Below are positions 19,445 through 31,522 of a stretch of DNA of 64,000 nt, piece after piece (the first letter of the stretch is position 1; each line of letters starts with the position of its first letter). The DNA comes from a virus (taxonomy: Duplodnaviria > Caudoviricetes). The position numbers and the translations under genes are program-made. The notes beneath the pieces are model-generated. The model searched no databases and had not been told where the DNA came from. It worked only from the letters and a program-made list of their open reading frames with translations. The stretch is taken from IMG/VR virus record IMGVR_UViG_3300017917_003016, positions 32,001-96,000 of that record; one strand, written 5' to 3'.

Positions 19445-19475
19445 ATTGACCTAGGTCAATAAATACGCATATAAT
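19445..19475 (+). promoter_or_regulatory. Composite promoter: sigma70 plus late motif plus a perfect 16-bp palindrome
   Basis: ATTGACCTAGGTCAAT palindrome; TTGACC-N18-TATAAT; ATAAATA at 19459-19465. Confidence 0.65.
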
Positions 19476-19497
19476 GATATTCAACTAGAGGTCAAAT

Positions 19498-19971
19498 ATG
19501 TCCGTAGAATTTCTAACACTTGACAACTGTCATGTAGTGCACAAGCCCTGGGGGCAGGAAACTTGGCTACAAGGTGGCAGTTCCCTATACCCATTTGCAC
19601 TCAAAGAACTAATACTTCGTGAAGGTTTTGTGACTAGTCTGCAGGTTCATCAGTTTAAATCAGAAACCATACACCTGCATCAAGGTCACGGAGCATTAAT
19701 TTATCATCCAACTCCGTTTGACTGCGAAAAATATCTCCAAGGTGGATATTCTCCACAGGATATTCAACAGATCAAAAATGAATTGATAACACAACCACTG
19801 GGACCGGGTGCAGTATTTCACACACCCCCGGGCACTATACATCGTATGGTAGCCTATACAGACCTACACTATACTGAAGCCAGCACCACACAACTAGACG
19901 ATGTTATACGTCTGGAAGATTCACACAATCGAGGACATGGAAGGATAGACTCAGAACATGAGCAACGCTAA
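19498..19971 (+). CDS. Cupin-fold sugar-phosphate isomerase-like protein
   Basis: KPWGQE, SLQVHQFKSETI, PPGTIHRM and DDVIRLED motifs. Confidence 0.75.
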   Translation: MSVEFLTLDNCHVVHKPWGQETWLQGGSSLYPFALKELILREGFVTSLQVHQFKSETIHLHQGHGALIYHPTPFDCEKYLQGGYSPQDIQQIKNELITQPLGPGAVFHTPPGTIHRMVAYTDLHYTEASTTQLDDVIRLEDSHNRGHGRIDSEHEQR

Positions 19972-21550
19972 ACTCACTGTATTAATTCTAGCAGCAGGAT
20001 ATGGCCGCCGTATGGGGCCATTTAGTCGCATGATTCCCAAAGCACTTATACCATATAATAATAAACCTTTGATAAGTCATATCATTGAAAAATTTAATGT
20101 GCACACAAGATTTGTCATAGCCTGCGGACATTTAGGACACATGATCAAAGATTATGTAAATGCAGTTCACGGCGACAAAGACATAGTGTTTGTGGATGTG
20201 CCTAATTATGCAGAAGGTGACACTGGCCCCGCTACCAGTATACAGGCCTGTGCCAAGTACATACGAGGTGGATTCATGTGGTTGGCCTGTGACACTCTTT
20301 TTGATTTTGACTATCATAACAAACTGGATCATAATTGGATTGCCGTGCACCCGGTAGACTCAACGTTGGCACAAGACTACTGCTGGGTAGAGCGAGAGTC
20401 TGATCAGATCATAAATGTCTACAATAAGAAGCCCAGTCGTGATGCTGTGGACGCCTTTGTTGGTCTAATGTATGCTAAGGACGACGAATATCTTGACAAT
20501 CTCATTGCTCGCAAGGCCAAGGAAACCTATGAAGGGTTTAGTGGTCTAACCCTCAAAGCGCATACCATACGCACCTGGAAGGACTTTGGTACCTATGAAA
20601 AATGGGAAGATCTCAATTCAGAATTCACCGATGTTAGTTTCCCTAAACCAGATGAACTATTTTATACAGACAATGGCAAGGTAGTTAAATTTTGGACCAA
20701 TCCCAAACAAGCAGAAATGCGTGTGCGCCGAGCAGACTGTAATCCTGCTGCCATGCCTAGCAATGTTACCAGTGCAGGCAATTTTTTAGTACATGATTTT
20801 GCACAAGGAGACATTGTCTACAATCAGTACACTCCGGAAGTGTTTGCACGTATGCTTGAATGGTGTGAGAACACCCTGTGGAAGCCAGCACCAGAAACAG
20901 AAGAACAGCGGCGATTTGATATATGCCGCAAGTTCTACTACGAAAAGACCATGGAAAGAGTTGAAGCATTCCGTGTCAAGTATTCAGATTGGTCAGAGCC
21001 CTGCGCAGTCAACGGTCAGCAGGTTCTGACCATTAATCAGTATCTAGATCAAATTGATTTCCCATGGTTGTGTTCAACTAATTCGTGGAGTTTCATACAC
21101 GGCGATCTGCACTTTGACAATACCATATATGACAACGGACAGTTTGAAGGCAAAATGAAGATATATGATGCTGAATTAGTGGCTCCTTATAAATTCACTG
21201 CCATAGATTGGCGCACAGATTTTGGTGGTGAACTCTATGGTGATCTTTATTATGATCTAGCCAAGATGCTAGGAGGATTGCATCTCAGTTACAGAGACAT
21301 CAAACATGAGCAGTATGGATATCAAGAACGCGACGACAAGGTCCTGCTAGAGGTGCCCAGTGTACAGAATGTAGATGTCTACGAAAACATGCTGAAAGAA
21401 TGGGTTGAACACCGCGGACTAGAGTGGCGCAAGGTTAAGTTGCTGGTACCGATTATCTATCTTAACATGAGTCCCTTGCATGAATGGCCGTTTGACAAGT
21501 TCCTAGTGGCTCTAGCACAACTACACTTTTCTAAGGTGCTAAATGCTTAA
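19958..21550 (+). CDS. Bifunctional NTP transferase / phosphotransferase
   Basis: N-terminal ILAAGYGRRM...PKAL; C-terminal HGDLHFDN, IDWR and YDLAK kinase-fold motifs. Confidence 0.82.
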   Translation: MSNAKLTVLILAAGYGRRMGPFSRMIPKALIPYNNKPLISHIIEKFNVHTRFVIACGHLGHMIKDYVNAVHGDKDIVFVDVPNYAEGDTGPATSIQACAKYIRGGFMWLACDTLFDFDYHNKLDHNWIAVHPVDSTLAQDYCWVERESDQIINVYNKKPSRDAVDAFVGLMYAKDDEYLDNLIARKAKETYEGFSGLTLKAHTIRTWKDFGTYEKWEDLNSEFTDVSFPKPDELFYTDNGKVVKFWTNPKQAEMRVRRADCNPAAMPSNVTSAGNFLVHDFAQGDIVYNQYTPEVFARMLEWCENTLWKPAPETEEQRRFDICRKFYYEKTMERVEAFRVKYSDWSEPCAVNGQQVLTINQYLDQIDFPWLCSTNSWSFIHGDLHFDNTIYDNGQFEGKMKIYDAELVAPYKFTAIDWRTDFGGELYGDLYYDLAKMLGGLHLSYRDIKHEQYGYQERDDKVLLEVPSVQNVDVYENMLKEWVEHRGLEWRKVKLLVPIIYLNMSPLHEWPFDKFLVALAQLHFSKVLNA

Positions 21551-22013
21551 GAGATTTATTCTAGATGTAGATGGGGTACTGAACGATGGCATGCTCTACT
21601 GGGGCGTAGATGGCAAGCCGTTCAAGGCATTTGGCAACTACGACCACGATGGTCTTAAGATCTTACGCCAGCATTTAGACATTGAATTTATCAGTGCTGA
21701 CCAACAGGGTTGGGCCATAACAGAAAGCCGCATAGTCAAACATATGAAGTTTCCCTTGACCATGGTCAAAGAAGCGGATAGGTTGAATTGGGTATTGTCC
21801 AGAGGTGACACTGCGGAAACAGTGTTCATGGGCGACGGTCCTTATGATGCAAAAATATTTCCACATGTGGCTCTGAGCATAGCACCTGCACAGGCGTGGA
21901 ATACCGCATGCTCTGCTGCAACTTATGTAACACCCCGTAAAGGAGGCCGCGGCGCTGTAATGGACGCCTGCGTTTATATTATGAATAGGATGGGAATCGA
22001 ACATGAATTTTAG
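21543..22013 (+). CDS. KdsC-like HAD phosphatase
   Basis: ILDVDGVLNDG, FMGDGPYD and GGRGAVMD motifs. Confidence 0.85.
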   Translation: MLKRFILDVDGVLNDGMLYWGVDGKPFKAFGNYDHDGLKILRQHLDIEFISADQQGWAITESRIVKHMKFPLTMVKEADRLNWVLSRGDTAETVFMGDGPYDAKIFPHVALSIAPAQAWNTACSAATYVTPRKGGRGAVMDACVYIMNRMGIEHEF

Positions 22014-22986
22014 ACTGGGATTTGGGCCTATGAGCCCTGAAGTAATACGTGCAATCTGTACATACTCGCATGATACCAAACGGCCACTGATGATCATTGC
22101 CAGCCGCAATCAAGTTGATGCTGACAGTGGTTATGTCATGACCACACCAGAACTGCGACAACTATTAGACACACTGCCAACTGACCATGTGTGGATGTGT
22201 CGCGATCACTGCGGTCCTTATTTCCTAGACAGCGAGAAGAATCTCAGTCTGCGCAAGGCCATAGAAGCAACTAAGAAAACCATAGCCTATGACATAGAAC
22301 AAGGGTTTGACCTCATACACATAGACACCAGTAGAGTTGATGATACCTATGGTGTTGCTGAAGAACTGTTTAATTTTTGCCTAAGCCTTAAGACCGACAT
22401 ACGTTTTGAGTTTGGTACCGAAGAAAACGTTGGTGTTGCTGCGGGTGCGGTCAAGTATCGTTCAGATGTGGCCTTTGCCAAGAACATTCCAAACATTGAA
22501 TTTGTAGTTGCACAGACAGGTAGTCTGTGTTTTGAAGACCGCCAGGCTGGAACCTTTGATACTGAAACAGTTCGTAGTCTAGTAAAAGAAGCAGAATTCA
22601 ACGGAGTCAAACTCAAAGAACACAATGCCGATTATCTTACACCTGACCAAGTACGTCTTCGCAAGGCCGCCGGTGTACATGCTATGAACATAGCACCGCA
22701 ATTGGGCGTGGTACAGACTAAACTACTTAAAGAACTTTGCTTGAGTCGAGTGGGGCAAGATCTTTGGGATCCCTTTGCTCAGAAAGTCCTAGCCAGCGGA
22801 CGTTGGAAGAAATGGACTAACAGTGATCAGGATGATCAAAAGGTCATAGTCGCAGGACATTACTGTTTTGGCACTGCAGAATATCGGGCAATATTAGATG
22901 GTCTGAGCCAACACGCCAATTGGGATGACGAAATTCAGCAGGCACTTTATCAGGTATTTGATACCTATACAGATAATCTAGCATGA
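22003..22986 (+). CDS. GatZ/KbaZ-like ketose-phosphate aldolase/epimerase
   Basis: LMIIASRNQVD, RDHCGP, LIHIDTS, GTEEN, KEHNADY and NIAPQLG motifs. Confidence 0.7.
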   Translation: MNFRLGFGPMSPEVIRAICTYSHDTKRPLMIIASRNQVDADSGYVMTTPELRQLLDTLPTDHVWMCRDHCGPYFLDSEKNLSLRKAIEATKKTIAYDIEQGFDLIHIDTSRVDDTYGVAEELFNFCLSLKTDIRFEFGTEENVGVAAGAVKYRSDVAFAKNIPNIEFVVAQTGSLCFEDRQAGTFDTETVRSLVKEAEFNGVKLKEHNADYLTPDQVRLRKAAGVHAMNIAPQLGVVQTKLLKELCLSRVGQDLWDPFAQKVLASGRWKKWTNSDQDDQKVIVAGHYCFGTAEYRAILDGLSQHANWDDEIQQALYQVFDTYTDNLA

Positions 22987-24077
22987 TTGTATTATTCAAC
23001 GTTAAGATCACTGACGTGCGCATGGGTTATCCCTATCGCCGCGGCGAGTGGATGCCCGATCCAGAGAGATTTGATGTATTTCGTTACTGTTTAGCCAGTA
23101 CCGCAGAATTAGGGCCCCTGACCAGTCGTTTTGTATTTTGTATAACACTTGCACCTGAACTAGCACATAGGCAAAGTGAACTAGATGCTTATATGCGTGA
23201 TCTATTTCCTAGGGAAAAATTAGAAATTATTTGGCAACGCTGTGATTATGGGCGTGATTGGCGCAGGATTTGTGACCAATACCTCACCGATCCTAACGAA
23301 CTAGTTTGGCTAGCCTGCAACGATGATCATATCTTTTTAGACAGCGACCTAGACACAGTTAAGAGTGCAATCAAACATTTGAATCTAGATTCAGATCCCA
23401 ATGCGGTGTTTTACTACAGCCATTGGCCAGAACAAATGCGCATGGCCAATCATTATCATGCGGAATTAACCCAAGATGGTTTACTGGTAAAATATCCCTG
23501 GGAAACCTTTGATGGCATAATGATACTCAAAGCAGGTCGTTTGTCCGGGTATTTTGACCGTGACTATGGCAATGCTGCCATGTTCAAAGTTGATTATCTT
23601 GGTGCATATCATAATTATCAAGCACCTGGTCCTGTGTATGCTCCAACTAAAGAGATAGTTCGTCACTATGAGGGTTATAGTCATGTTAATCACGAAATGC
23701 CACAGCACCTAGCCAATGTAGTTCCTCCCCTGTTTATTCCTCCTGGATTTTTTGAAAATAACATGCAGGTTCGTGTAGGTTATCATGAACGAGATAACAA
23801 CTCTACAAACTTTAATCCTGCAGCAGAGTGGCTATACAATACCAATCCTGCAGGCACAGACTATCGTTGGCATGTCAAGGACATACCTCTGTTTTGGCAG
23901 AAGCACATAAGACAAATTGATCATGCTGATGATTATGATGATATTCTTATGAAACGGGCTAGGGATGCTGCTTTTCTTGCCGCAGCACGTGTACCGATGA
24001 AGTGCTTTGGCATAGACTTTAACCACACATCTGTGCCCCCCAACAGTTGGTTTCAAAAACACCTGTTGTATCGCTAG
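22983..24077 (+). CDS. Hypothetical protein, possible glycosyltransferase
   Basis: WLACNDDHIF (DxD-like); last gene of the operon. Confidence 0.45.
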   Translation: MIVLFNVKITDVRMGYPYRRGEWMPDPERFDVFRYCLASTAELGPLTSRFVFCITLAPELAHRQSELDAYMRDLFPREKLEIIWQRCDYGRDWRRICDQYLTDPNELVWLACNDDHIFLDSDLDTVKSAIKHLNLDSDPNAVFYYSHWPEQMRMANHYHAELTQDGLLVKYPWETFDGIMILKAGRLSGYFDRDYGNAAMFKVDYLGAYHNYQAPGPVYAPTKEIVRHYEGYSHVNHEMPQHLANVVPPLFIPPGFFENNMQVRVGYHERDNNSTNFNPAAEWLYNTNPAGTDYRWHVKDIPLFWQKHIRQIDHADDYDDILMKRARDAAFLAAARVPMKCFGIDFNHTSVPPNSWFQKHLLYR

Positions 24078-24145
24078 ATTTTGGTTGACCTTTTGGTCCT
24101 GTGAACATATAATAGCAGCATAACGTAACAACACAGGAGCATACA
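24077..24145 (+). promoter_or_regulatory. Early promoter-RBS cassette R1
   Basis: GATTTTGG-TTGACC-N17-TATAAT-AGCAGCATAACGTAACAACACAGGAGCA. Confidence 0.88.
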
Positions 24146-24535
24146 ATGGCATACTTTAGTCAAGAACGCAAGGCTCAAATCGCCCCCAAGGTCAAGAGTA
24201 TCCTGAAGAAGTACGGCCTTAAGGGTAGCCTTAGTGTGCGCAATCACAGCACTGTGGTCTTGACCATCAACAGCGGCAAGATTGACTTTATCGGTAACAA
24301 CCAAGAGACCATGGGTCGCACCTGGGCCCAGCGCCGCACCAATCTTGATGTCAACATTTATCACTATCGTAATCACTTTGACGGTGTTGCACGTGACGCA
24401 CTCGCTGAACTGATTACTGCTCTCAACGACGGCAACTGGGACAACAGCGACATCCAGACCGACTACTTTGACAAGGGTTGGTACGTTAACGTCAATGTTG
24501 GTCGTTGGAACAAGGGTTATATTGTCACTGCCTAA
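24146..24535 (+). CDS. Early protein with an LPD29-like C-terminal motif
   Basis: DNSDIQTDYFDKGWY motif. Confidence 0.5.
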   Translation: MAYFSQERKAQIAPKVKSILKKYGLKGSLSVRNHSTVVLTINSGKIDFIGNNQETMGRTWAQRRTNLDVNIYHYRNHFDGVARDALAELITALNDGNWDNSDIQTDYFDKGWYVNVNVGRWNKGYIVTA

Positions 24536-24545
24536 GGAGGCTAAG

Positions 24546-24692
24546 ATGTTTGATCTTATCGATGACACGGCTGCACTCCACGCTCAATGGGAACTTGAGT
24601 ATCAAGAATGGCTAGGTAGCGAAGCCTGGGTTGAAGTTGTTAACCAGTGGCTTTGTGAATTGGCTAACGAAATGCTCAATGAGGAGGCCTAA
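24546..24692 (+). CDS. Small acidic hypothetical protein
   Basis: AAGGAGG RBS; MFDLIDDT... Confidence 0.65.
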   Translation: MFDLIDDTAALHAQWELEYQEWLGSEAWVEVVNQWLCELANEMLNEEA

Positions 24693-24859
24693 TGGAAAGC
24701 GTTCAAATGAATGAAATTCTGCAGCGCATGGCTCGTGAACGTAATTGTACGGTTTATCAGGTCATTCAAGAGTATTTGAAATACCAATTAAACGGGCAAG
24801 TCAAACACTTTTGGCCTGACCAAAACGAGGCCTGTAGGTCCTATTTGGAGAACAACTGA
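24692..24859 (+). CDS. Small hypothetical protein (55 aa)
   Basis: Manually read MESVQMNEIL...YLENN with a GAGGAGG RBS. Confidence 0.6.
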   Translation: MESVQMNEILQRMARERNCTVYQVIQEYLKYQLNGQVKHFWPDQNEACRSYLENN

Positions 24860-24927
24860 TGAGTCTTATTGGACTTATTGTAATGCTGCTGGTACTTGGT
24901 ATTCTTATTGGAAGGTACATTAGGTGA
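24859..24927 (+). CDS. Small membrane peptide (22 aa)
   Basis: MSLIGLIVMLLVLGILIGRYIR, coupled by a TGATG overlap. Confidence 0.45.
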   Translation: MSLIGLIVMLLVLGILIGRYIR

Positions 24928-25151
24928 CTGCAGAATCTGAGCGTTTTTGTCAACTAATTGATGAATTGAGGCGGGCCTATGTTGCCTCAGATTCTGCAGA
25001 AAGTTCATATGCAAGGCTAGTTGGTGCTCTGGGTGCTATGATACCTTGGTATGTAGACGCTGAAAATCTAGCCAAACTCAACAATGCTCTAGAACAAGCA
25101 GTTAAAAACGAAACTATGAAAATTCTTGGTAAGGAAAATATCCATGCTTGA
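24924..25151 (+). CDS. Hypothetical protein
   Basis: ORF track; GTGA overlap with the previous gene. Confidence 0.55.
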   Translation: MTAESERFCQLIDELRRAYVASDSAESSYARLVGALGAMIPWYVDAENLAKLNNALEQAVKNETMKILGKENIHA

Positions 25152-25533
25152 TCAAGAAAACGAGAAGTTCAACGAAGTTGTGTTTGATGGCATCCGTTTT
25201 CTAGAGAGCCTGACTCGTTATTACGGTGCTGAGCGTGGCATGGAAGTCTGGGAACAGTTGGGTGAAGTTGTAGGCAAGGACGTGCAGGGCCAGGTGTTCT
25301 TTGCCATGCTCACGGGCGATACCAGTAACCGTGTGAGAATCAGCCGCGGCACCTGTAAAGAAGCAGTGACCGCTATCAAGGCCATTCGTCAGGCCACTGG
25401 CATGAGTCTCAAAGAAGCCAAGGATGCCTGGGATCTCACTGCAGTCAAGACCGTGACTCTTGACAATGTTCAGCGCGATGCCAAACAGGAGTTTCTTCGC
25501 GATCTTCGCAGTATTGGTGTGAGGGTTCACTAA
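25144..25533 (+). CDS. Protein with a ribosomal L7/L12 C-terminal-like domain
   Basis: AVTAIKAIRQATGMSLKEAKDAWD resembles bL12 [24 protein letters not shown]. Confidence 0.65.
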   Translation: MLDQENEKFNEVVFDGIRFLESLTRYYGAERGMEVWEQLGEVVGKDVQGQVFFAMLTGDTSNRVRISRGTCKEAVTAIKAIRQATGMSLKEAKDAWDLTAVKTVTLDNVQRDAKQEFLRDLRSIGVRVH

Positions 25534-25534
25534 C

Positions 25535-25999
25535 ATGGCAGAAATTTTTTACCGTAAGGTCGGCCGCCGCTATGTCCCAGTCAGTGAATATGACAACTCT
25601 GTCATGGACAGTTTTCCCTACGGATCTCATCTTGTGGTGGTAAAGCGAGGATCAACTAGCCGCCGCCACAACATTGATCCTGCACACGCACCTATGATCG
25701 CTGCTGGTCTTATTGCTGAAGATGCAGTGAGAGAAGCATTGGTCAAAGCCGGCGAAATTCGCCTGCAACGCCGTGACCGTGAACGTCAACTTACACCCGG
25801 ACAAAAGCAGGCCTGGGATAATCTAGTCAAAGAATTTGGTGACAGTGCCAAACAACTGGAATGGCCCAGCACTGCAGAAGTTGCTGAAGAAGGAGTTAAA
25901 GCCATGCAGCGAGAAGCAGATCAACTGCTGCAGAACCCCTCAGTACGTGCAGCCTATGATCATTTTTTGACAGTCTGCGAACTGTGCCGCGAGCATTAA
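25535..25999 (+). CDS. Hypothetical phage protein
   Basis: ORF track; IFYRKVGRRYVPVSEYD N-terminus. Confidence 0.6.
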   Translation: MAEIFYRKVGRRYVPVSEYDNSVMDSFPYGSHLVVVKRGSTSRRHNIDPAHAPMIAAGLIAEDAVREALVKAGEIRLQRRDRERQLTPGQKQAWDNLVKEFGDSAKQLEWPSTAEVAEEGVKAMQREADQLLQNPSVRAAYDHFLTVCELCREH

Positions 26000-26001
26000 A
26001 A

Positions 26002-26068
26002 TTGGTTGACCTTGCCTGCAGATCACTGTATAATGCTTGCATACGCTAACAAAGCAGGAGTAGACAAC
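26002..26068 (+). promoter_or_regulatory. Early promoter-RBS cassette R2
   Basis: TTGG-TTGACC-N17-TATAAT...CAGGAGTAGACAAC. Confidence 0.82.
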
Positions 26069-26416
26069 ATGGCTTACATCGTTTTCCATTTTGAAACTCG
26101 CCAAATCATCAAGCATTATGCTTCGCGCAAGGGTGCACTGGTTGGTCTCCGTGCTGCTAATCGCAATGCTGGCTATCCGCAGCGTTGGACTCTGTGCAAC
26201 TACGATGTTGATCACGGTGCTCTGCGTGAGTGGTGCGAGACTGCCGATGGCTCCAACGGCTATGCTCCTTATGCTGCTATCGAATCCAACCTGTTTGATC
26301 AACACTATCGTCGCAACATCACGGTGACCAATCTTATGACGGGCAAGCCTGTGGAAATTGACAGCAACACCCCGTGGAGTTGCCGCCCGGACAGCGAAGC
26401 CTACTGGAGTAACTAA
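26069..26416 (+). CDS. Hypothetical early protein
   Basis: Start reassigned to the ATG after the RBS; C-terminal VTNLMTGKPVEIDSNTPWSCRPDSEAYW. Confidence 0.65.
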   Translation: MAYIVFHFETRQIIKHYASRKGALVGLRAANRNAGYPQRWTLCNYDVDHGALREWCETADGSNGYAPYAAIESNLFDQHYRRNITVTNLMTGKPVEIDSNTPWSCRPDSEAYWSN

Positions 26417-26431
26417 TTTAATGAGCCAAAC

Positions 26432-26707
26432 ATGATTAACATTCAATTTAACATTCACAATCCACTAGTTCATCGATTTGTGCCCGTTAAGATATGGCAA
26501 GGTCCAACTCCTATTGAACACAAATTTTGGGAGTTGGAAATCTACAAGAGTTCGGATATTGTTGATGCGTTCTTTCGTTTCGACTGTTGTCAAAGCCATG
26601 CTGGGCTGCATCTAGGTCTAGCACTGCTGGGATACAACATTGAATTTCAAATCTATGACCATCGTCATTGGGACTATGAAGAAGAAGATTGGTATTATAA
26701 TGAATAA
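26432..26707 (+). CDS. Hypothetical protein
   Basis: ORF track. Confidence 0.55.
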   Translation: MINIQFNIHNPLVHRFVPVKIWQGPTPIEHKFWELEIYKSSDIVDAFFRFDCCQSHAGLHLGLALLGYNIEFQIYDHRHWDYEEEDWYYNE

Positions 26708-26852
26708 GGAACTGATTATGAAAACTATTGCACTGGTAATTGCTGTACTGTCGCTGATTTCTTTGGCATTTAACTACTCTGATCCTGCAGCAGCCGCAGG
26801 TTGGGCTGTGGCCTTTGCTGGTTGGATCTTCCACGCACTGGCCAAAGAATAA
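26700..26852 (+). CDS. Small membrane protein
   Basis: Two hydrophobic segments. Confidence 0.55.
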   Translation: MNKELIMKTIALVIAVLSLISLAFNYSDPAAAAGWAVAFAGWIFHALAKE

Positions 26853-26899
26853 AATGAAATTTATGCTGCAACTGGGACTCTGCGGAATCTAAAGACCGT

Positions 26900-27118
26900 A
26901 TGAATCAAAAAATTCGTGAGTTTATTCAAAGGTCTTATCCTCAAGTTGACCTTGACCAAGAAATTGCCAATCGCGATGAATTGCCTAAAGAAGTTGAGCA
27001 TTTGGTTACCCTAGTGGTGGAAGAATGTCTTAAGGTTAGTGGCCGCACCCCCACAGTGTGGCCTTTTGCCTTTATAGATTTTAACAAGGTAATCAGACGA
27101 CATTTTGGCCTAGATTAG
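26900..27118 (+). CDS. Hypothetical protein
   Basis: ORF track; LVVEECL...IRRHFGLD. Confidence 0.55.
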   Translation: MNQKIREFIQRSYPQVDLDQEIANRDELPKEVEHLVTLVVEECLKVSGRTPTVWPFAFIDFNKVIRRHFGLD

Positions 27119-27185
27119 ATTTTGGTTGACCTTTTGTTCCTGTGATCTTATAATAGTGGCATAACGTAAAACACAGGAGCAAGGC
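27118..27185 (+). promoter_or_regulatory. Early promoter-RBS cassette R3
   Basis: Near copy of R1: TTGACC-N17-TATAAT...CATAACGTAAAACACAGGAGCA. Confidence 0.88.
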
Positions 27186-27446
27186 ATGAACAGTCAAGCC
27201 ATTCAAACTGCTATCTATACTTGGGCAACCAACGGTAGTTTTTCTGCACCTTACGGTGTGCTCACTGGCCAACACGCCAGTCGCAATGGTCGCAACTATC
27301 ATTCAGTGACCTTTGGTCGTGCCCGCAGTCTGGACTGCGAAGTGCAGATCTACAACAGGAATTTTATTGTAGTACGTACTAACCGTCATGGTAGCCAGGT
27401 ATTTCGTAACTACCAAGACTGTCAAAACTTCCTGGATACTCTGTAA
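27186..27446 (+). CDS. Hypothetical early protein
   Basis: ORF directly behind R3. Confidence 0.65.
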   Translation: MNSQAIQTAIYTWATNGSFSAPYGVLTGQHASRNGRNYHSVTFGRARSLDCEVQIYNRNFIVVRTNRHGSQVFRNYQDCQNFLDTL

Positions 27447-27458
27447 TTCTTCCAACAG

Positions 27459-27465
27459 ATAAATA
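27459..27465 (+). promoter_or_regulatory. T4-like late promoter inside the early region
   Basis: ATAAATA 18 nt before the ATG at 27483. Confidence 0.55.
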
Positions 27466-27482
27466 TCTAACAAGGACCTGCA

Positions 27483-27665
27483 ATGAAAATCACTGAAGTT
27501 AGCAAGACCAATCGCCAAGCACTGCGCGAAAGCCTTGAACAGTCCAACGATACTGGTTTCAGTGTTGACGACCTTATGACTATCTACGATCTGCACAAGA
27601 ACGGTGATTGGGACTGTGTAGACGCCGATGATGAAATTGCACGTCTTGATGCTATGATTGACTAA
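27483..27665 (+). CDS. Small acidic protein, candidate antitoxin
   Basis: 60 aa, very acidic C-terminal half, directly upstream of the RelE/YafQ-like gene. Confidence 0.45.
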   Translation: MKITEVSKTNRQALRESLEQSNDTGFSVDDLMTIYDLHKNGDWDCVDADDEIARLDAMID

Positions 27666-27670
27666 TCAGT

Positions 27671-28072
27671 ATGCCTGCGCCGCGCGATAATAAACCACAA
27701 ATACAAAGAAAATTTTGGCGCAGTACAGAGTACCGAGATCAGGTCAACCCAGAAAATCCAAATCGAGTCCGCGGTTCAGTCAAAGATTCTCTTAAGAGAT
27801 TTTTGAGCAGCAAAAGAACTAATCCGCAACAGTCCTACGGCAACAAAGACTATCCGTTTACATCAGCAGGGCAATTTGCCCATGAAGTTCCGGGACTGAT
27901 GCATGCTCATTTAAGTCAAGATCTTTCCATAGTCTATAAAGTTCAAGGTAACGAAATATATCTTTTTGGGATATTTTCACATGCTGACCTTGGTACCGGA
28001 AATCCTCCAAATATTCGTAAACAAACTAGTATGGCACGAAGATTTGCCAACATGACCTTTACTGAAGAATGA
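27671..28072 (+). CDS. YafQ/RelE-like mRNA interferase
   Basis: HAHLSQDLSIVYKVQGNEIYLFGIFSHADL resembles the YafQ CH..D.LLIY...L.R.GSHS.L pattern. Confidence 0.55.
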   Translation: MPAPRDNKPQIQRKFWRSTEYRDQVNPENPNRVRGSVKDSLKRFLSSKRTNPQQSYGNKDYPFTSAGQFAHEVPGLMHAHLSQDLSIVYKVQGNEIYLFGIFSHADLGTGNPPNIRKQTSMARRFANMTFTEE

Positions 28073-28076
28073 CTCT

Positions 28077-28141
28077 TTGGTTGACAACCCTGCTCTAGAC
28101 CTGTATAATAGCGGTACAGTGAACAACAAGGAGCAACAACA
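28077..28141 (+). promoter_or_regulatory. Early promoter-RBS cassette R4
   Basis: TTGG-TTGACA-N17-TATAAT...AACAACAAGGAGCA. Confidence 0.82.
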
Positions 28142-28297
28142 ATGACCCACAATGAAATCATGGACGAATGGGCACGTCGACTCAATTACGTTGCACAACT
28201 GTTCCGTGAAGGTGAGATTGATCTGTGTGAGTTTGACGAACGCAACGCTGCGGTGCAAGGTTGGTTTGACACTGAGTATGCCAAGGTAGTTGGTTAA
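28142..28297 (+). CDS. Small early protein (51 aa)
   Basis: Manually read MTHNEIMDEW...AKVVG. Confidence 0.65.
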   Translation: MTHNEIMDEWARRLNYVAQLFREGEIDLCEFDERNAAVQGWFDTEYAKVVG

Positions 28298-28316
28298 TTT
28301 TAACAAGGAGCGCACA

Positions 28317-28406
28317 ATGTATATTCCCCAACCTGTGATTATTTTTGTTGTGTCCCTTCTCATCGGCTACGGCGCTGCTGACATTTTTGCAAAATTCTTC
28401 AATTAA
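28317..28406 (+). CDS. Small membrane peptide (29 aa)
   Basis: MYIPQPVIIFVVSLLIGYGAADIFAKFFN with an AAGGAG RBS. Confidence 0.55.
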   Translation: MYIPQPVIIFVVSLLIGYGAADIFAKFFN

Positions 28407-28431
28407 TCACTTGCTCAATCAGGAGATAACT

Positions 28432-28701
28432 ATGACTGCACAAGAAATCGTTCGCGAGATCGTCACTGGCAACTTCACTGCTGATGAAGTTCGCAGTTTC
28501 TACGACGCCTATAAGTTTGCTGCCAATCAACTGTCGCGCAAGGCAACCTTTACTCTGCGCCGAGGCGACAAGGTCAAGTTCAAGGACCGCTATGGTTTGG
28601 AAGTGATCGGTACTGTGCAGGACATCAAGATCAAGAACGTAGTGGTTAAGACTACGTTGTATACCTACCGTGTGCCGGCTAGCATGGTGACTGCGGCTTA
28701 A
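28432..28701 (+). CDS. Hypothetical protein with an SH3-like C-terminus
   Basis: AGGAGA RBS; GDKVKF...GTVQDIKIKNVVV...YRVPASMV. Confidence 0.65.
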   Translation: MTAQEIVREIVTGNFTADEVRSFYDAYKFAANQLSRKATFTLRRGDKVKFKDRYGLEVIGTVQDIKIKNVVVKTTLYTYRVPASMVTAA

Positions 28702-28703
28702 TT

Positions 28704-28907
28704 ATGATTATTACCGAAGAACGTCAAATGGTTCTGCAGGCAGTGCTTGACGGGCAACTGAGTGCAGATTATGTCACCGACGAAGAACTTATCTTTCTGC
28801 ATCACAGTCTAGCAGATTCTACTATTGAAGAAGCCATGTATGCAGCAGAGTCTCGCAATGATGTGACGGTGTTTGGTCTTGACTGGGAATATGCGCAGCC
28901 CAATTGA
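28704..28907 (+). CDS. Hypothetical protein
   Basis: ORF track. Confidence 0.55.
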   Translation: MIITEERQMVLQAVLDGQLSADYVTDEELIFLHHSLADSTIEEAMYAAESRNDVTVFGLDWEYAQPN

Positions 28908-29106
28908 CACCAAAAGATATCCTTATCAGGTTGTGGTTGTTGAGCCTATACCAGTCATGGCACACATTTGGTTAAAAAATAATCAAATTGATCACAAGGA
29001 CTCCTTTACTGAGGGTGCTGCTGTGGGACAGTTAGATCCTCTGGTGCGTTGTATCTATTTTGCCGATGCTCGTGATGCTGCTTGGTTTGCTTTGAAGTGG
29101 TCATAA
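28891..29106 (+). CDS. Hypothetical protein
   Basis: C-terminal YFADARDAAWFALKW. Confidence 0.55.
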   Translation: MRSPIDTKRYPYQVVVVEPIPVMAHIWLKNNQIDHKDSFTEGAAVGQLDPLVRCIYFADARDAAWFALKWS

Positions 29107-29126
29107 AATTTGAAATTAGGTAAATT

Positions 29127-29318
29127 ATGATAGAAAAAACTAGATTAGATGGATTACTGTTCGCCATGTTAGGCGACAGTCAGTTGGTAGAACGTTGGTG
29201 GTATAGTCCTAACAAGGCCTTTGACTCAGAAAGGCCGATTGATGTTTTTGTACTAGAGCCCGATCGAGTCAGAGACTATGTCATGCGTATGGCCAATCTC
29301 AACAGTGACTACGACTGA
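29127..29318 (+). CDS. Xre/MbcA/ParS antitoxin C-terminal-like domain (DUF2384-like), standalone
   Basis: VERWWYSPNKAFDSERPIDV resembles A..WL..PN.AL.G..P.DL. Confidence 0.55.
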   Translation: MIEKTRLDGLLFAMLGDSQLVERWWYSPNKAFDSERPIDVFVLEPDRVRDYVMRMANLNSDYD

Positions 29319-29384
29319 TTTTGGTTGACATTTTGGTCCGTTGATCGTACAATAGCATCATACTAACAACAACGGAGCAAGACT
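29317..29384 (+). promoter_or_regulatory. Early promoter-RBS cassette R5
   Basis: GATTTTGG-TTGACA-N17-TACAAT...AACAACAACGGAGCA. Confidence 0.85.
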
Positions 29385-30014
29385 ATGGCCTACTACCGCA
29401 AGCACCAAGTGGAAGAACCCCGTTTTACGGTCAAGGAGATTGTGGCCGCAGCCATTATTCAAGATGAACAACATCCCACAAAGGACGGTGTTCCGCTGAC
29501 TACTCGTGACATCCTTGAAAGCACTCCTGTGCTGCCCGTGGCTCGTGCTGAGCAAATGATTGAAGAAGTACAGCAGAATTTTACTCTCAGCATGCTGCGC
29601 GGTCGAGAGTTCAGCAACTTCAATCGCAAGTTGGCAGAAATCATCAGCGAGCCTGAAGCCAAAACCAACAGCAATTTTGGTATCCTTGCTTATGTTCCCA
29701 GTGTTCACCGTGACCTGGTCAAGACCAACACTATTACTGAACAAACCTGTGACAGCCGCTATCAAGGACGCACAGGCGAAACTTTGAATTTTACGGCTCG
29801 CGTGTTGAACTGCCGTTACATTGCCAGTTATGGTTTCTATACCGCACTGTTGCTTGACGACACCGGTAACGTCTACAGTTTCAGTCCTAAGGCTTCGCTA
29901 GATGAAGGTGCGACTGTGACCATCCGTGGCAAGGTCAAGGCACACAAGCAGGACAAGTACAACAACAACGTTGAGACTACCTATCTCAACTATGTCAAGA
30001 TTCAAAAAAATTAA
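29385..30014 (+). CDS. Early protein with a probable C-terminal OB fold
   Basis: beta-strand-rich C-terminus ending IRGKVKAHKQD...TTYLNYVKI. Confidence 0.5.
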   Translation: MAYYRKHQVEEPRFTVKEIVAAAIIQDEQHPTKDGVPLTTRDILESTPVLPVARAEQMIEEVQQNFTLSMLRGREFSNFNRKLAEIISEPEAKTNSNFGILAYVPSVHRDLVKTNTITEQTCDSRYQGRTGETLNFTARVLNCRYIASYGFYTALLLDDTGNVYSFSPKASLDEGATVTIRGKVKAHKQDKYNNNVETTYLNYVKIQKN

Positions 30015-30018
30015 ACAA

Positions 30019-30088
30019 GATTTGGTTGACAGGCTTACCAAAATATCATATAATAGCATCATAACGTAACAACACAGGAGCAGCACAA
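30019..30088 (+). promoter_or_regulatory. Early promoter-RBS cassette R6
   Basis: TTGACA-N17-TATAAT-AGCATCATAACGTAACAACACAGGAGCA; 3' part nearly identical to R1. Confidence 0.87.
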
Positions 30089-30490
30089 ATGGCCAAGATC
30101 TACACCTTCGACGAGAACATTGTTAGCGATCTGTACAAGGATGCCTATGGTCACCGCCCGGGCCAATCGTTCTGGGAAATGTGGAAGACTGTCACCGACC
30201 GTGACCGCCAAGAAATTTGGGACAACCTGCTTGAGGCTCTGGACCGTGCCGTTGAGCAAGAACGTGCTGCCCGGACTCGTGCCGAGCATGACTTCCAGTT
30301 CACTATTGCTAGCCTGATGCATGCAGGTGCCAAGGACTTTGAAATGGCCGTTCGTTGGCTACATGACGCAAACGACACCCAAGGTGACGATGAGTACCTG
30401 GAGTACAAGTTGGGAATTGGCTACGGCTATATCCGCGAGGCTCGTGAGTCCATGCAGGTTGCCAATGAACTGCTGGCACAAACCGCATAA
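30089..30490 (+). CDS. Hypothetical early protein
   Basis: SDLYKDAYGHRP motif. Confidence 0.65.
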   Translation: MAKIYTFDENIVSDLYKDAYGHRPGQSFWEMWKTVTDRDRQEIWDNLLEALDRAVEQERAARTRAEHDFQFTIASLMHAGAKDFEMAVRWLHDANDTQGDDEYLEYKLGIGYGYIREARESMQVANELLAQTA

Positions 30491-30570
30491 GTGGTTGACA
30501 ACTAGATCCAAAGATCATATAATACTGAAACTGTAGTACAAAACACAATAACTTTTCAGGAGCATAGACA
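30491..30570 (+). promoter_or_regulatory. Early promoter R7
   Basis: GTGG-TTGACA-N17-TATAAT...CAGGAGCATAGACA. Confidence 0.82.
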
Positions 30571-31398
30571 ATGAAGACTACCACTCGTACTCGCGTTCGT
30601 ATTGCCAAGGCCCCGGTCAAGACTGAAGCCCAGCGCATGCAGGAGATTGCTGAACGTTTTGAAATCCTGGATGAAATGGCCAAGGCCACTACCAACGGTG
30701 ATATCCGTGCTATGATTGTTTCGGGCCCTCCGGGTGTGGGCAAGAGTTTTGGCATCGAGCGTGTTATTGACAAGGCTGTGTTGTTTGACCAAGTGGCCGG
30801 CAAGCGTCTGCGCTGCGAAGTGGTCAAGGGTGCTGCCAGTGCCATTGGCCTGTATACCACTCTGTACAAGTACAGTGATCCTAACTGTGTTGTGGTGTTC
30901 GATGACTGTGATAGCATCCTGTTGGACGATGTCTGTCTTAACCTGCTTAAGGGTGCACTGGACTCGGGCAAGAAGCGCCGCATTTCGTGGCTCAGCGACA
31001 GCAACATTCTGCGCCGCGAAGGTGTGCCTAATCAGTTCGACTTCAAGGGTGCTGTGATCTTTATCACCAACCTTAAGTTTGATGACATGAAGAGCAAGAA
31101 GTTGGCTGACCACCTTGAGGCTCTGCAAAGCCGTTGCCACTACATTGACCTGGCTCTGGACACTACTGAAGACAAGATTCTGCGTATCAAGCAGATTGCT
31201 GCTACTGGTGAACTGTTCCAAGATTATGAGTTTGATCAGTGCGTTCAGGACGAAATCATCGAGTTTATGACTACTAACAGCAGTCATCTTCGTGAAATCA
31301 GTCTGCGTATGGCCATCAAGATTGCTGACCTGCGCAAGAGTTTCCCTGTCAAGTGGCAGGCCCTGGCTCGTACTACCTGTATGAAGGCCGCGGCGTAA
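30571..31398 (+). CDS. AAA+ ATPase
   Basis: Walker A GPPGVGKS; Walker B VVVFDDCD; NLLKGALD, IFITN and ALQSRC motifs. Confidence 0.88.
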   Translation: MKTTTRTRVRIAKAPVKTEAQRMQEIAERFEILDEMAKATTNGDIRAMIVSGPPGVGKSFGIERVIDKAVLFDQVAGKRLRCEVVKGAASAIGLYTTLYKYSDPNCVVVFDDCDSILLDDVCLNLLKGALDSGKKRRISWLSDSNILRREGVPNQFDFKGAVIFITNLKFDDMKSKKLADHLEALQSRCHYIDLALDTTEDKILRIKQIAATGELFQDYEFDQCVQDEIIEFMTTNSSHLREISLRMAIKIADLRKSFPVKWQALARTTCMKAAA

Positions 31399-31409
31399 TC
31401 AATTTTGTC

Positions 31410-31489
31410 TGAGGTAATAACTCCACGTGATAACTATTTTTTGCAGTACCTCGGCGCACTTTTTATTGTCTAGCTCCTAGTGCATCGAG
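31410..31489 (+). ncRNA. Candidate structured 3'UTR or small RNA with an anti-RBS loop
   Basis: Stem 31450-31460/31479-31489; the loop carries ATTGTCTAGCTCCT, complementary to early translation starts. Confidence 0.45.
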
Positions 31490-31493
31490 TTTT

Positions 31494-31522
31494 AAGCCCA
31501 GAGTTTTCTCTGGGCTTTTTTT
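31494..31522 (+). terminator. Rho-independent terminator
   Basis: AAGCCCAGAG-TTTT-CTCTGGGCTT followed by TTTTT. Confidence 0.88.

Follow-up and report, generated by a model that had tools for sequence, protein, structure and literature searches.

Complementarity between promoter spacers and Shine-Dalgarno sequences in three of seven cassettes of a putative jumbo phage

An array of seven promoter cassettes

The stretch of DNA analysed here (the window) comprises 64,000 nucleotides (nt), bases 32001-96000 of the 201,732-bp IMG/VR viral contig IMGVR_UViG_3300017917_003016, for which CheckV estimates a completeness of 56%. It contains seven repeated promoter cassettes (R1 to R7), and in three of these (R1, R3 and R5) the spacer between the −35 and −10 boxes is complementary to the ribosome-binding site (RBS) of the gene that the cassette precedes. 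Related contigs are 320-370 kb in length, which suggests that the source is an uncultured jumbo phage. Its UvsW-like helicase shares 50-56% identity with the homologues of Sinorhizobium phage Phosso, Agrobacterium phage Atu_ph07 and Pseudomonas phage PA5oct. A megablast comparison of the array with cultured phages returned no nucleotide match.

The seven promoters are of the consensus sigma-70 type (TTGAC-N18-TAYAAT), lie between 24085 and 30523 and are all on the + strand; together with their leaders and RBSs, the cassettes span 24085-30571 of that strand. Downstream of each promoter come a C/A-rich leader, a GGAG Shine-Dalgarno (SD) sequence and an ATG, and the stop codon of the preceding open reading frame (ORF) is located 4-11 nt ahead of each −35 box. 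The first ORFs of the modules are ORFans without a Pfam family, with the exception of an AAA ATPase gene behind R7. The R1 ORF encodes a protein of 129 amino acids (aa) of unknown function (phrog_10415). The best explanation for the region 24085-31517 is that it is an early, hyperplastic region, in which each cassette heads a short module of ORFans. Its features are as follows.

24085-24113, + strand: R1 promoter (−35 box 24085-24090, −10 box 24108-24113), with the 5′ arm TCCTGTG in the spacer at 24097-24103
24132-24148, + strand: R1 3′ arm and start; CACAGGA (24132-24138) overlaps the SD GGAG (24136-24139); ATG at 24146
26006-26071, + strand: R2 cassette, ATG at 26069; CCTGC/GCAGG match of 5 bp, not above chance
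27126-27154, + strand: R3 promoter, with the 5′ arm at 27132-27144 occupying most of the spacer
27172-27188, + strand: R3 3′ arm (27172-27184) and start; SD 27176-27179; ATG at 27186
28075-28144, + strand: R4 cassette; TGCTC/GAGCA match not significant
29325-29353, + strand: R5 promoter (−10 box TACAAT), with the 5′ arm at 29331-29343 and its core TCCGTTG at 29337-29343
29370-29387, + strand: R5 3′ arm (29370-29382, core CAACGGA at 29370-29376) and start; SD 29374-29377; ATG at 29385
30026-30091, + strand: R6 cassette; CACAGGAGCA leader as in R1, unrelated spacer, no helix
30495-30573, + strand: R7 cassette, preceding the AAA ATPase gene; no spacer:SD helix
31494-31517, + strand: intrinsic terminator, the sole strong one, at the end of the array after the last module

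The promoters of R1, R3 and R5 also share a doubled TTTTGGT, found just 5′ of the −35 box and again, 14 nt away, at the start of the spacer (24079-24097, 27120-27138 and 29319-29337). The arrangement ttttggTTGACn ttttgg recurs in >120 metagenomic phage contigs among the matches listed. The doubled motif may contribute to recognition in addition to the sigma-70 hexamers.

Pairing of the spacer with the Shine-Dalgarno sequence

In R1, the spacer heptamer TCCTGTG is complementary over 7 bp to CACAGGA at the RBS. The two R3 arms form 13 contiguous pairs, including three G-U pairs, and the helix buries the SD and stops 2 nt short of the ATG. In R5, the core TCCGTTG pairs with CAACGGA, and the helix reaches 12 of 13 pairs once a T-run is included. 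Relative to R1 and R3, the R5 spacer carries TG>GT and the R5 leader CA>AC, such that two adjacent pairs are changed on both sides with the pairing of the core kept (7/7). It is through changes in the linker between SD and AUG that R3 and R5 lengthen the helix to 13 and 12/13 pairs, respectively. An earlier note on this DNA, made from the letters alone, had given the positions and pairings of R1, R3 and R5 and had described the R5 differences as two compensatory substitutions; every one of these statements matches the sequence.

With the transcription start site placed ~7 nt after the −10 box, the entire 5′ arm of R1, R3 and R5 precedes the expected start site, and the −10 box falls within the loop of ~28 nt that separates the arms. 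The G-U pairs of the helix form solely in RNA of the + strand. The 5′ arm begins 12-19 nt beyond the stop codon of the upstream ORF and, judging from known ribosome footprint sizes, should be out of reach of a terminating ribosome.

The matches were compared with chance by shuffling each 17-nt spacer 20,000 times, with its composition and the promoter boxes kept. This gave p = 0.009 for R1, p = 0.0025 for R3 and p = 0.0135 for R5. When 123 spacers of homologous foreign cassettes were swapped in, none (0/123) was as good on the R3 or R5 RBS, and 0.8% were as good on the R1 RBS. R1 and R3 are near-copies and were counted as one event, which leaves six effective cassettes; two events of ~1% among six cassettes correspond to roughly 2 × 10^−3, by our own arithmetic from the shuffle p values. 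Even when some post-hoc selection is allowed for, the association in this genome is unlikely to be accidental.

The shorter matches reported earlier for R2 (CCTGC/GCAGG) and R4 (TGCTC/GAGCA) are present in the sequence and do not exceed chance, with p ~0.065 for R2 and no significance for either candidate arm of R4. Folding of R4 favours a different arm, CTCTTT (28075-28080, upstream of the −35 box) with AAGGAG, which is likewise not significant. All of these R2 and R4 candidates were rejected for that reason. R6 and R7, for which no match had been claimed, have no spacer:SD helix in the same shuffle test (p = 1.0 and p = 0.17, respectively).

The predicted folds of read-through and native RNA differ markedly in energy. 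A short read-through construct, extending from 10 nt upstream of the −35 box through ATG+15, folds at −15.2 (R1), −20.3 (R3) and −17.0 (R5) kcal/mol, and in each case the spacer:SD helix is the dominant element. The native leaders fold at only −0.8 to −4.9 kcal/mol, and the helix is absent from promoter-initiated RNA. When the RNA is extended by 60 nt on the upstream side and 35 nt into the coding sequence, the helix is retained in the minimum free energy and centroid structures of all three cassettes. In partition-function calculations, the R3 SD is unpaired with a probability of 0.40 in native RNA and 0.00 in read-through RNA, and the R5 SD with one of 0.54 and 0.25, respectively. RBS hairpins were reportedly analysed by de Smit and van Duin in 1990, and a stem of −15 to −20 kcal/mol over the SD is expected to suppress initiation strongly. 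On upstream-initiated RNA, the SD is placed in a stable helix in R1, R3 and R5, and not in R2, R4, R6 or R7. The proposal that read-through mRNA is silenced is therefore consistent with the predicted folds of three cassettes, in which the SD is hidden and the native leader is open, and does not extend to the other four.

A terminator scan of the array found no clear intergenic terminator ahead of 31494. Transcription from any of the promoters would therefore be expected to proceed through the later cassettes. Upstream of R1, a five-gene module (19446-24077) encodes a nucleotidyltransferase, a GatZ-like protein and others, and has a promoter of the same type at 19446. Its end lies 7 nt ahead of the R1 −35 box, and any read-through RNA entering R1 would probably come from this module. 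A weaker terminator-like hairpin was observed at 27041-27063, inside ORF 26900-27118 and ~60 nt 5′ of the R3 promoter. It has 8 pairs, 6 of them G-C, and the tail TTTTGCCTTT; if active, it would lower read-through into R3.

Related cassettes and rival explanations

Related cassettes were gathered from the loci of helicase homologues and R1-ORF homologues, from promoter-pattern scans and from TCC-anchored scans of viral contigs and metagenomes. The generic promoter-pattern scan of viral contigs returned mostly single promoters and was used as a background set alone. The homologous family, GGTTGAC-N-TTTTG...TATAAT, comprises 126 distinct members with the consensus spacer ttttggtaaaatgactg and a leader ending in ...aacaCACAGGAGCAataaATG. 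Among the 87 family members tested, only R1, R3 and R5 reach all seven register pairs (7/7). The TCC-anchored scans added only five distinct cassettes, whose helices are partial (5-6 bp); these are few, and were ascertained on three of the pairs.

Other pairings were observed in the course of the comparison. The strongest helix among 395 unique cassettes (−23.6 kcal/mol) is found at L081:2214 (+ strand) in the 323-kb contig IMGVR_UViG_3300029935_000001, where the spacer GCTGCTCCAG, abutting the −10 box, forms a perfect 10-bp helix with the RBS CTGGAGCAGC. Weaker spacer:RBS helices occur at L018:4120, L113:229 and L085:9327. Upstream of an R3-gene orthologue (L372:1440-1500), the spacer GTATTCTG is perfectly complementary over 8 bp to the start of its own leader, CAGAATAC, and not to the SD.

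We tentatively propose that the spacer arm is a lineage-specific, probably selected silencer of the first ORF of three modules on read-through RNA. Several results weigh against this proposal, beginning with the wider family. In a swap test of 100 unique cassettes, the duplex energy of a promoter with its own RBS equalled that with swapped RBSs (−7.17 vs −7.07, p = 0.29). This test is weakened by RBSs that are common to paralogues, and spacer-shuffle and register tests were added. The shuffle test across the 395 unique cassettes gave p<0.05 in 27 where 19.8 were expected, and p<0.01 in 7 where 4 were expected, an excess of low p values that is faint at most. As 4 cassettes are expected at p<0.01, about four helices of R1 quality are due by chance in a set of this size. 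In the register-specific test of 87 members, pairing per position was the same for own and swapped partners. Most of the 126 TTTTG-type cassettes carry the CACAGGAGCA RBS behind the spacer ttttggtaaaatgactg, which holds no anti-Shine-Dalgarno (anti-SD) sequence; CACAGGAGCA is therefore the usual RBS of the family and normally stands behind a spacer without such an arm. Both arms of R5 occur separately elsewhere, with cGTTGAt spacers in the loci L251, L252 and L039 and the RBS aACGGAGCA in many contigs. As these are ordinary family variants, recombination could have joined the two.

The orthologues of the three genes point in the same direction. In the nearest relatives, the R1-gene orthologue (76% nucleotide identity) has the spacer ttttggtgcacaggtcg and no SD helix, and ~30 further orthologous upstream regions also lack the helix, with p values anywhere between 0.04 and 1. 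In the nearest orthologue of the R5 gene (68% aa identity), the only match is a different, weak one of 7 bp, A/U-rich and directed at the SD-AUG linker (p = 0.06), and more distant R5-gene orthologues have no helix. Orthologues of the R3 gene are mostly not first in their module and have no promoter in front. The comparison of homologous cassettes and orthologues found neither a conserved nor a covarying helix in relatives, and by the yardstick of the earlier note itself, covariation in relatives, its general claim fails. The earlier description of the sequence as covarying holds inside this genome, for one cassette (R5) set against two (R1 and R3), and fails across relatives. A hand-picked alignment of 10 rows gave a covariation of 0.142 vs 0.094 when shuffled (3/500), with slid controls at <=0.08; its rows were picked after inspection, and the result is discounted.

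Two further points concern R1 and the promoters themselves. With coding context, the probability that the R1 SD is unpaired is equal in native and read-through RNA (0.25 vs 0.25), because weak downstream pairing competes in the native RNA. The seven promoters and the upstream one at 19446 are all of one class (TTGAC-N17/18-TATAAT), such that the temporal logic of phage T4, in which promoters of different stages are involved, is not directly applicable.

Cassettes also appear to be shuffled by recombination. In a single comparison, L210:7046-7422 was set against 28076-28151 and 30046-30404 of the window, and a homologue of the R6 ORF was found behind an R4-like promoter cassette. This arrangement suggests a crossover between promoter and ORF, similar to the modular shuffling of the PeSL cassettes of T4-like phages. 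In the same comparison, modules R2, R3 and R5 and the R4 ORFs were absent from the nearest relatives. Judged by these sequence comparisons, the anti-SD arm is a lineage-specific feature and not a property of the cassette family.

Alternatively, the pairing could have arisen without selection from the duplication of cassettes whose spacers are rich in T/G and whose leaders are rich in C/A, an account that we regard as nearly as likely as selected silencing. One cassette would have reached a 7-bp match by chance and been copied from R1 to R3, and R5 would be a chance recombinant of existing spacer and RBS variants; the hairpin might still form, with nothing depending on it. The family consensus spacer TAAAATG already fits 3/7 positions of CACAGGA, and R6 has the R1 leader but no arm. 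The equality of own and swapped pairing across the family, the mild excess of low p values, the presence of both R5 arms apart in other phages, recombination between promoter and ORF, and the orthologues without a helix are all as this account would have them. It is less comfortable with p<=0.0135 for three of the seven cassettes of a single array (~2 × 10^−3 even with R1 and R3 as one event), with the exact complementarity of the two changed R5 pairs, with the independent extension of the helix into the SD-AUG linker in R3 and R5, and with the failure of all 123 foreign spacers to equal the R3 or R5 match.

A much less probable alternative is an inverted repeat acting at the level of DNA, either as an operator for a dimeric regulator across the −10 box or as a quasi-palindrome that is kept by template-switch mutation or promotes cassette recombination. 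The −10 box and the start site do lie between the arms, and templated correction of quasi-palindromes was reportedly described in T4 by de Boer and Ripley in 1984. PeSL-type cassettes also recombine between the −10 box and the SD (PMC2839356). Nonetheless, an arm separation of 28 bp is ill-suited to a helix-turn-helix dimer, protein sites would be conserved rather than covarying, and a 7-bp stem with a 28-nt loop makes a poor DNA hairpin. Moreover, three pairs of R3 are G-U in + strand RNA and would be G-T mismatches in DNA, or A-C on the other strand. Given the G-U pairs and the 28-bp separation, a protein operator and a DNA cruciform were both rejected as unlikely.

Slightly more improbable still is a read-through hairpin with another RNA role, such as a processing or stability element defining module-specific mRNAs: stable folds do stand exactly at the module boundaries and early polycistronic RNAs of T4 are extensively processed (PMC3014915), but the stem has the SD at its centre rather than any known nuclease motif, does not have the length that RNase III requires, matches no Rfam family and is not conserved.

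A possible read-through silencer and its known counterparts

Under the proposed silencing, the 17-nt spacer of R1, R3 and R5 would encode an anti-SD arm. With the upstream ORF reaching almost to the −35 box, the spacer would be the only unconstrained sequence in which such an arm could be accommodated. RNA entering from an upstream promoter would hold the 5′ arm and form the hairpin, with the −10 box and start site in its loop. The stem would bury the SD and the SD-AUG linker, such that the first ORF of the module would be poorly translated. RNA from the cassette's own promoter would start inside the loop, lack the 5′ arm and present an open C/A-rich leader. Any such effect would be limited to the first ORF in each of three modules. 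Physically the interpretation is sound, and there are good precedents for it; it is neither general nor conserved.

A broader version, which we consider unlikely, is that mobile early cassettes carry their own fold-back insulation. In that case the spacer anti-SD arm would co-evolve with the RBS, and the ORFan would be translated from its own promoter only, wherever it is inserted in a terminator-less array, which would amount to the strategy of the insertion sequence IS10 reinvented for phage hyperplastic regions. Parallels such as the 10-bp helix of L081 would then be independent inventions. The claim of the earlier note that only transcripts from a gene's own promoter are translated goes too far, as the helix is above chance in 3/7 cassettes and the first ORF of a module alone would be affected. 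Its view of the array as one that shuffles is in line with the single L210 comparison, and insulation within that array is what the predicted folds might allow.

A further hairpin was observed at 31450-31485, in the 3′ untranslated region before the terminator at 31494-31517. Its loop (…ATTGTCTAGCTCCTA…) is complementary to the RBS and start region of R7 and can pair with all seven cassette RBSs, at −14 to −20.6 kcal/mol. With a loop complementary to seven RBSs at the end of the operon, this phage may make recurrent use of anti-SD pairing.

If the arm is functional, the spacer of a sigma-70 promoter, usually taken as sequence-neutral, would carry a second code that chooses which transcripts of a multi-promoter operon are translated, and cassettes in hyperplastic regions could be insulated from their neighbours as insertion sequences are. 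In practical terms, synthetic operons with several promoters could be designed by such a rule at little cost. A functional arm would also call for caution in annotation, in that the presence of a transcript need not mean translation. If it is not functional, the array provides a worked example of compositional bias and cassette duplication mimicking covariation.

The T4 precedent invoked in the earlier note is real. In the T4 genes e, soc, 49, I-TevI/II/III and segB, and in Aeh1 mobE, a helix covers the SD and/or AUG only when transcription has begun upstream (PMC3014915, PMC2988022). The promoter of these genes lies within or beside the 5′ strand of the hairpin, and their own transcripts are without that strand and are translated (PMC3014915, PMC2988022). 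R1, R3 and R5 resemble them in that the SD is in a predicted stable helix of the read-through RNA and the 5′ strand is missing from the RNA of the cassette's own promoter. The T4-type internal promoters are late or middle and follow a temporal logic, whereas those of the array are early, sigma-70-type and of one class. T4-type hairpins are also compact and conserved among close relatives, while here the loop is ~28 nt, the arm lies in the −35/−10 spacer and relatives are without the feature.

The transposase gene of IS10 (and of IS50) is reportedly shielded from external promoters by fold-back inhibition, as described by Davis, Simons and Kleckner in 1985 (Cell 43:379). The anatomy is alike in R1, R3 and R5, where the complement of the cassette's own RBS is found upstream of its own start site. 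Fold-back inhibition of IS10 therefore appears to be the closest functional analogue, and the closest match to the insulation logic. By analogy, insulation of the IS10 kind would fit better than the temporal logic of T4, as would the silencing of early ORFs on RNA from other promoters of the array. IS10 is a transposon present in single copy, whereas the cassettes described here are phage gene cassettes in a tandem array, and no transposase was found among the cassette ORFs.

The organization of the array is also reminiscent of the PeSL cassettes of the T4-like phages RB49/phi1, in which a repeated strong sigma-70-like early promoter with an SD and start codon heads ORFans in hyperplastic regions (PMC2839356, PMC4122927). 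The stem-loop of these cassettes is often located between the −35 and −10 boxes or over the −10 box, and the cassettes recombine between the −10 box and the SD (PMC2839356, PMC4122927). The seven repeated early promoters likewise come with an SD and start codon and head ORFans, and their module content differs from that of the nearest relatives. The PeSL stem-loop is a compact GGGG...CCCC terminator or attenuator in which the SD is not involved (PMC2839356). Unlike these, none of the seven cassettes in the array has a terminator-like hairpin, and the sole pairing is long-range, between spacer and SD. Sequestration of the RBS on read-through RNA is already known from T4 and from insertion sequences, and the three cassettes would add to it.

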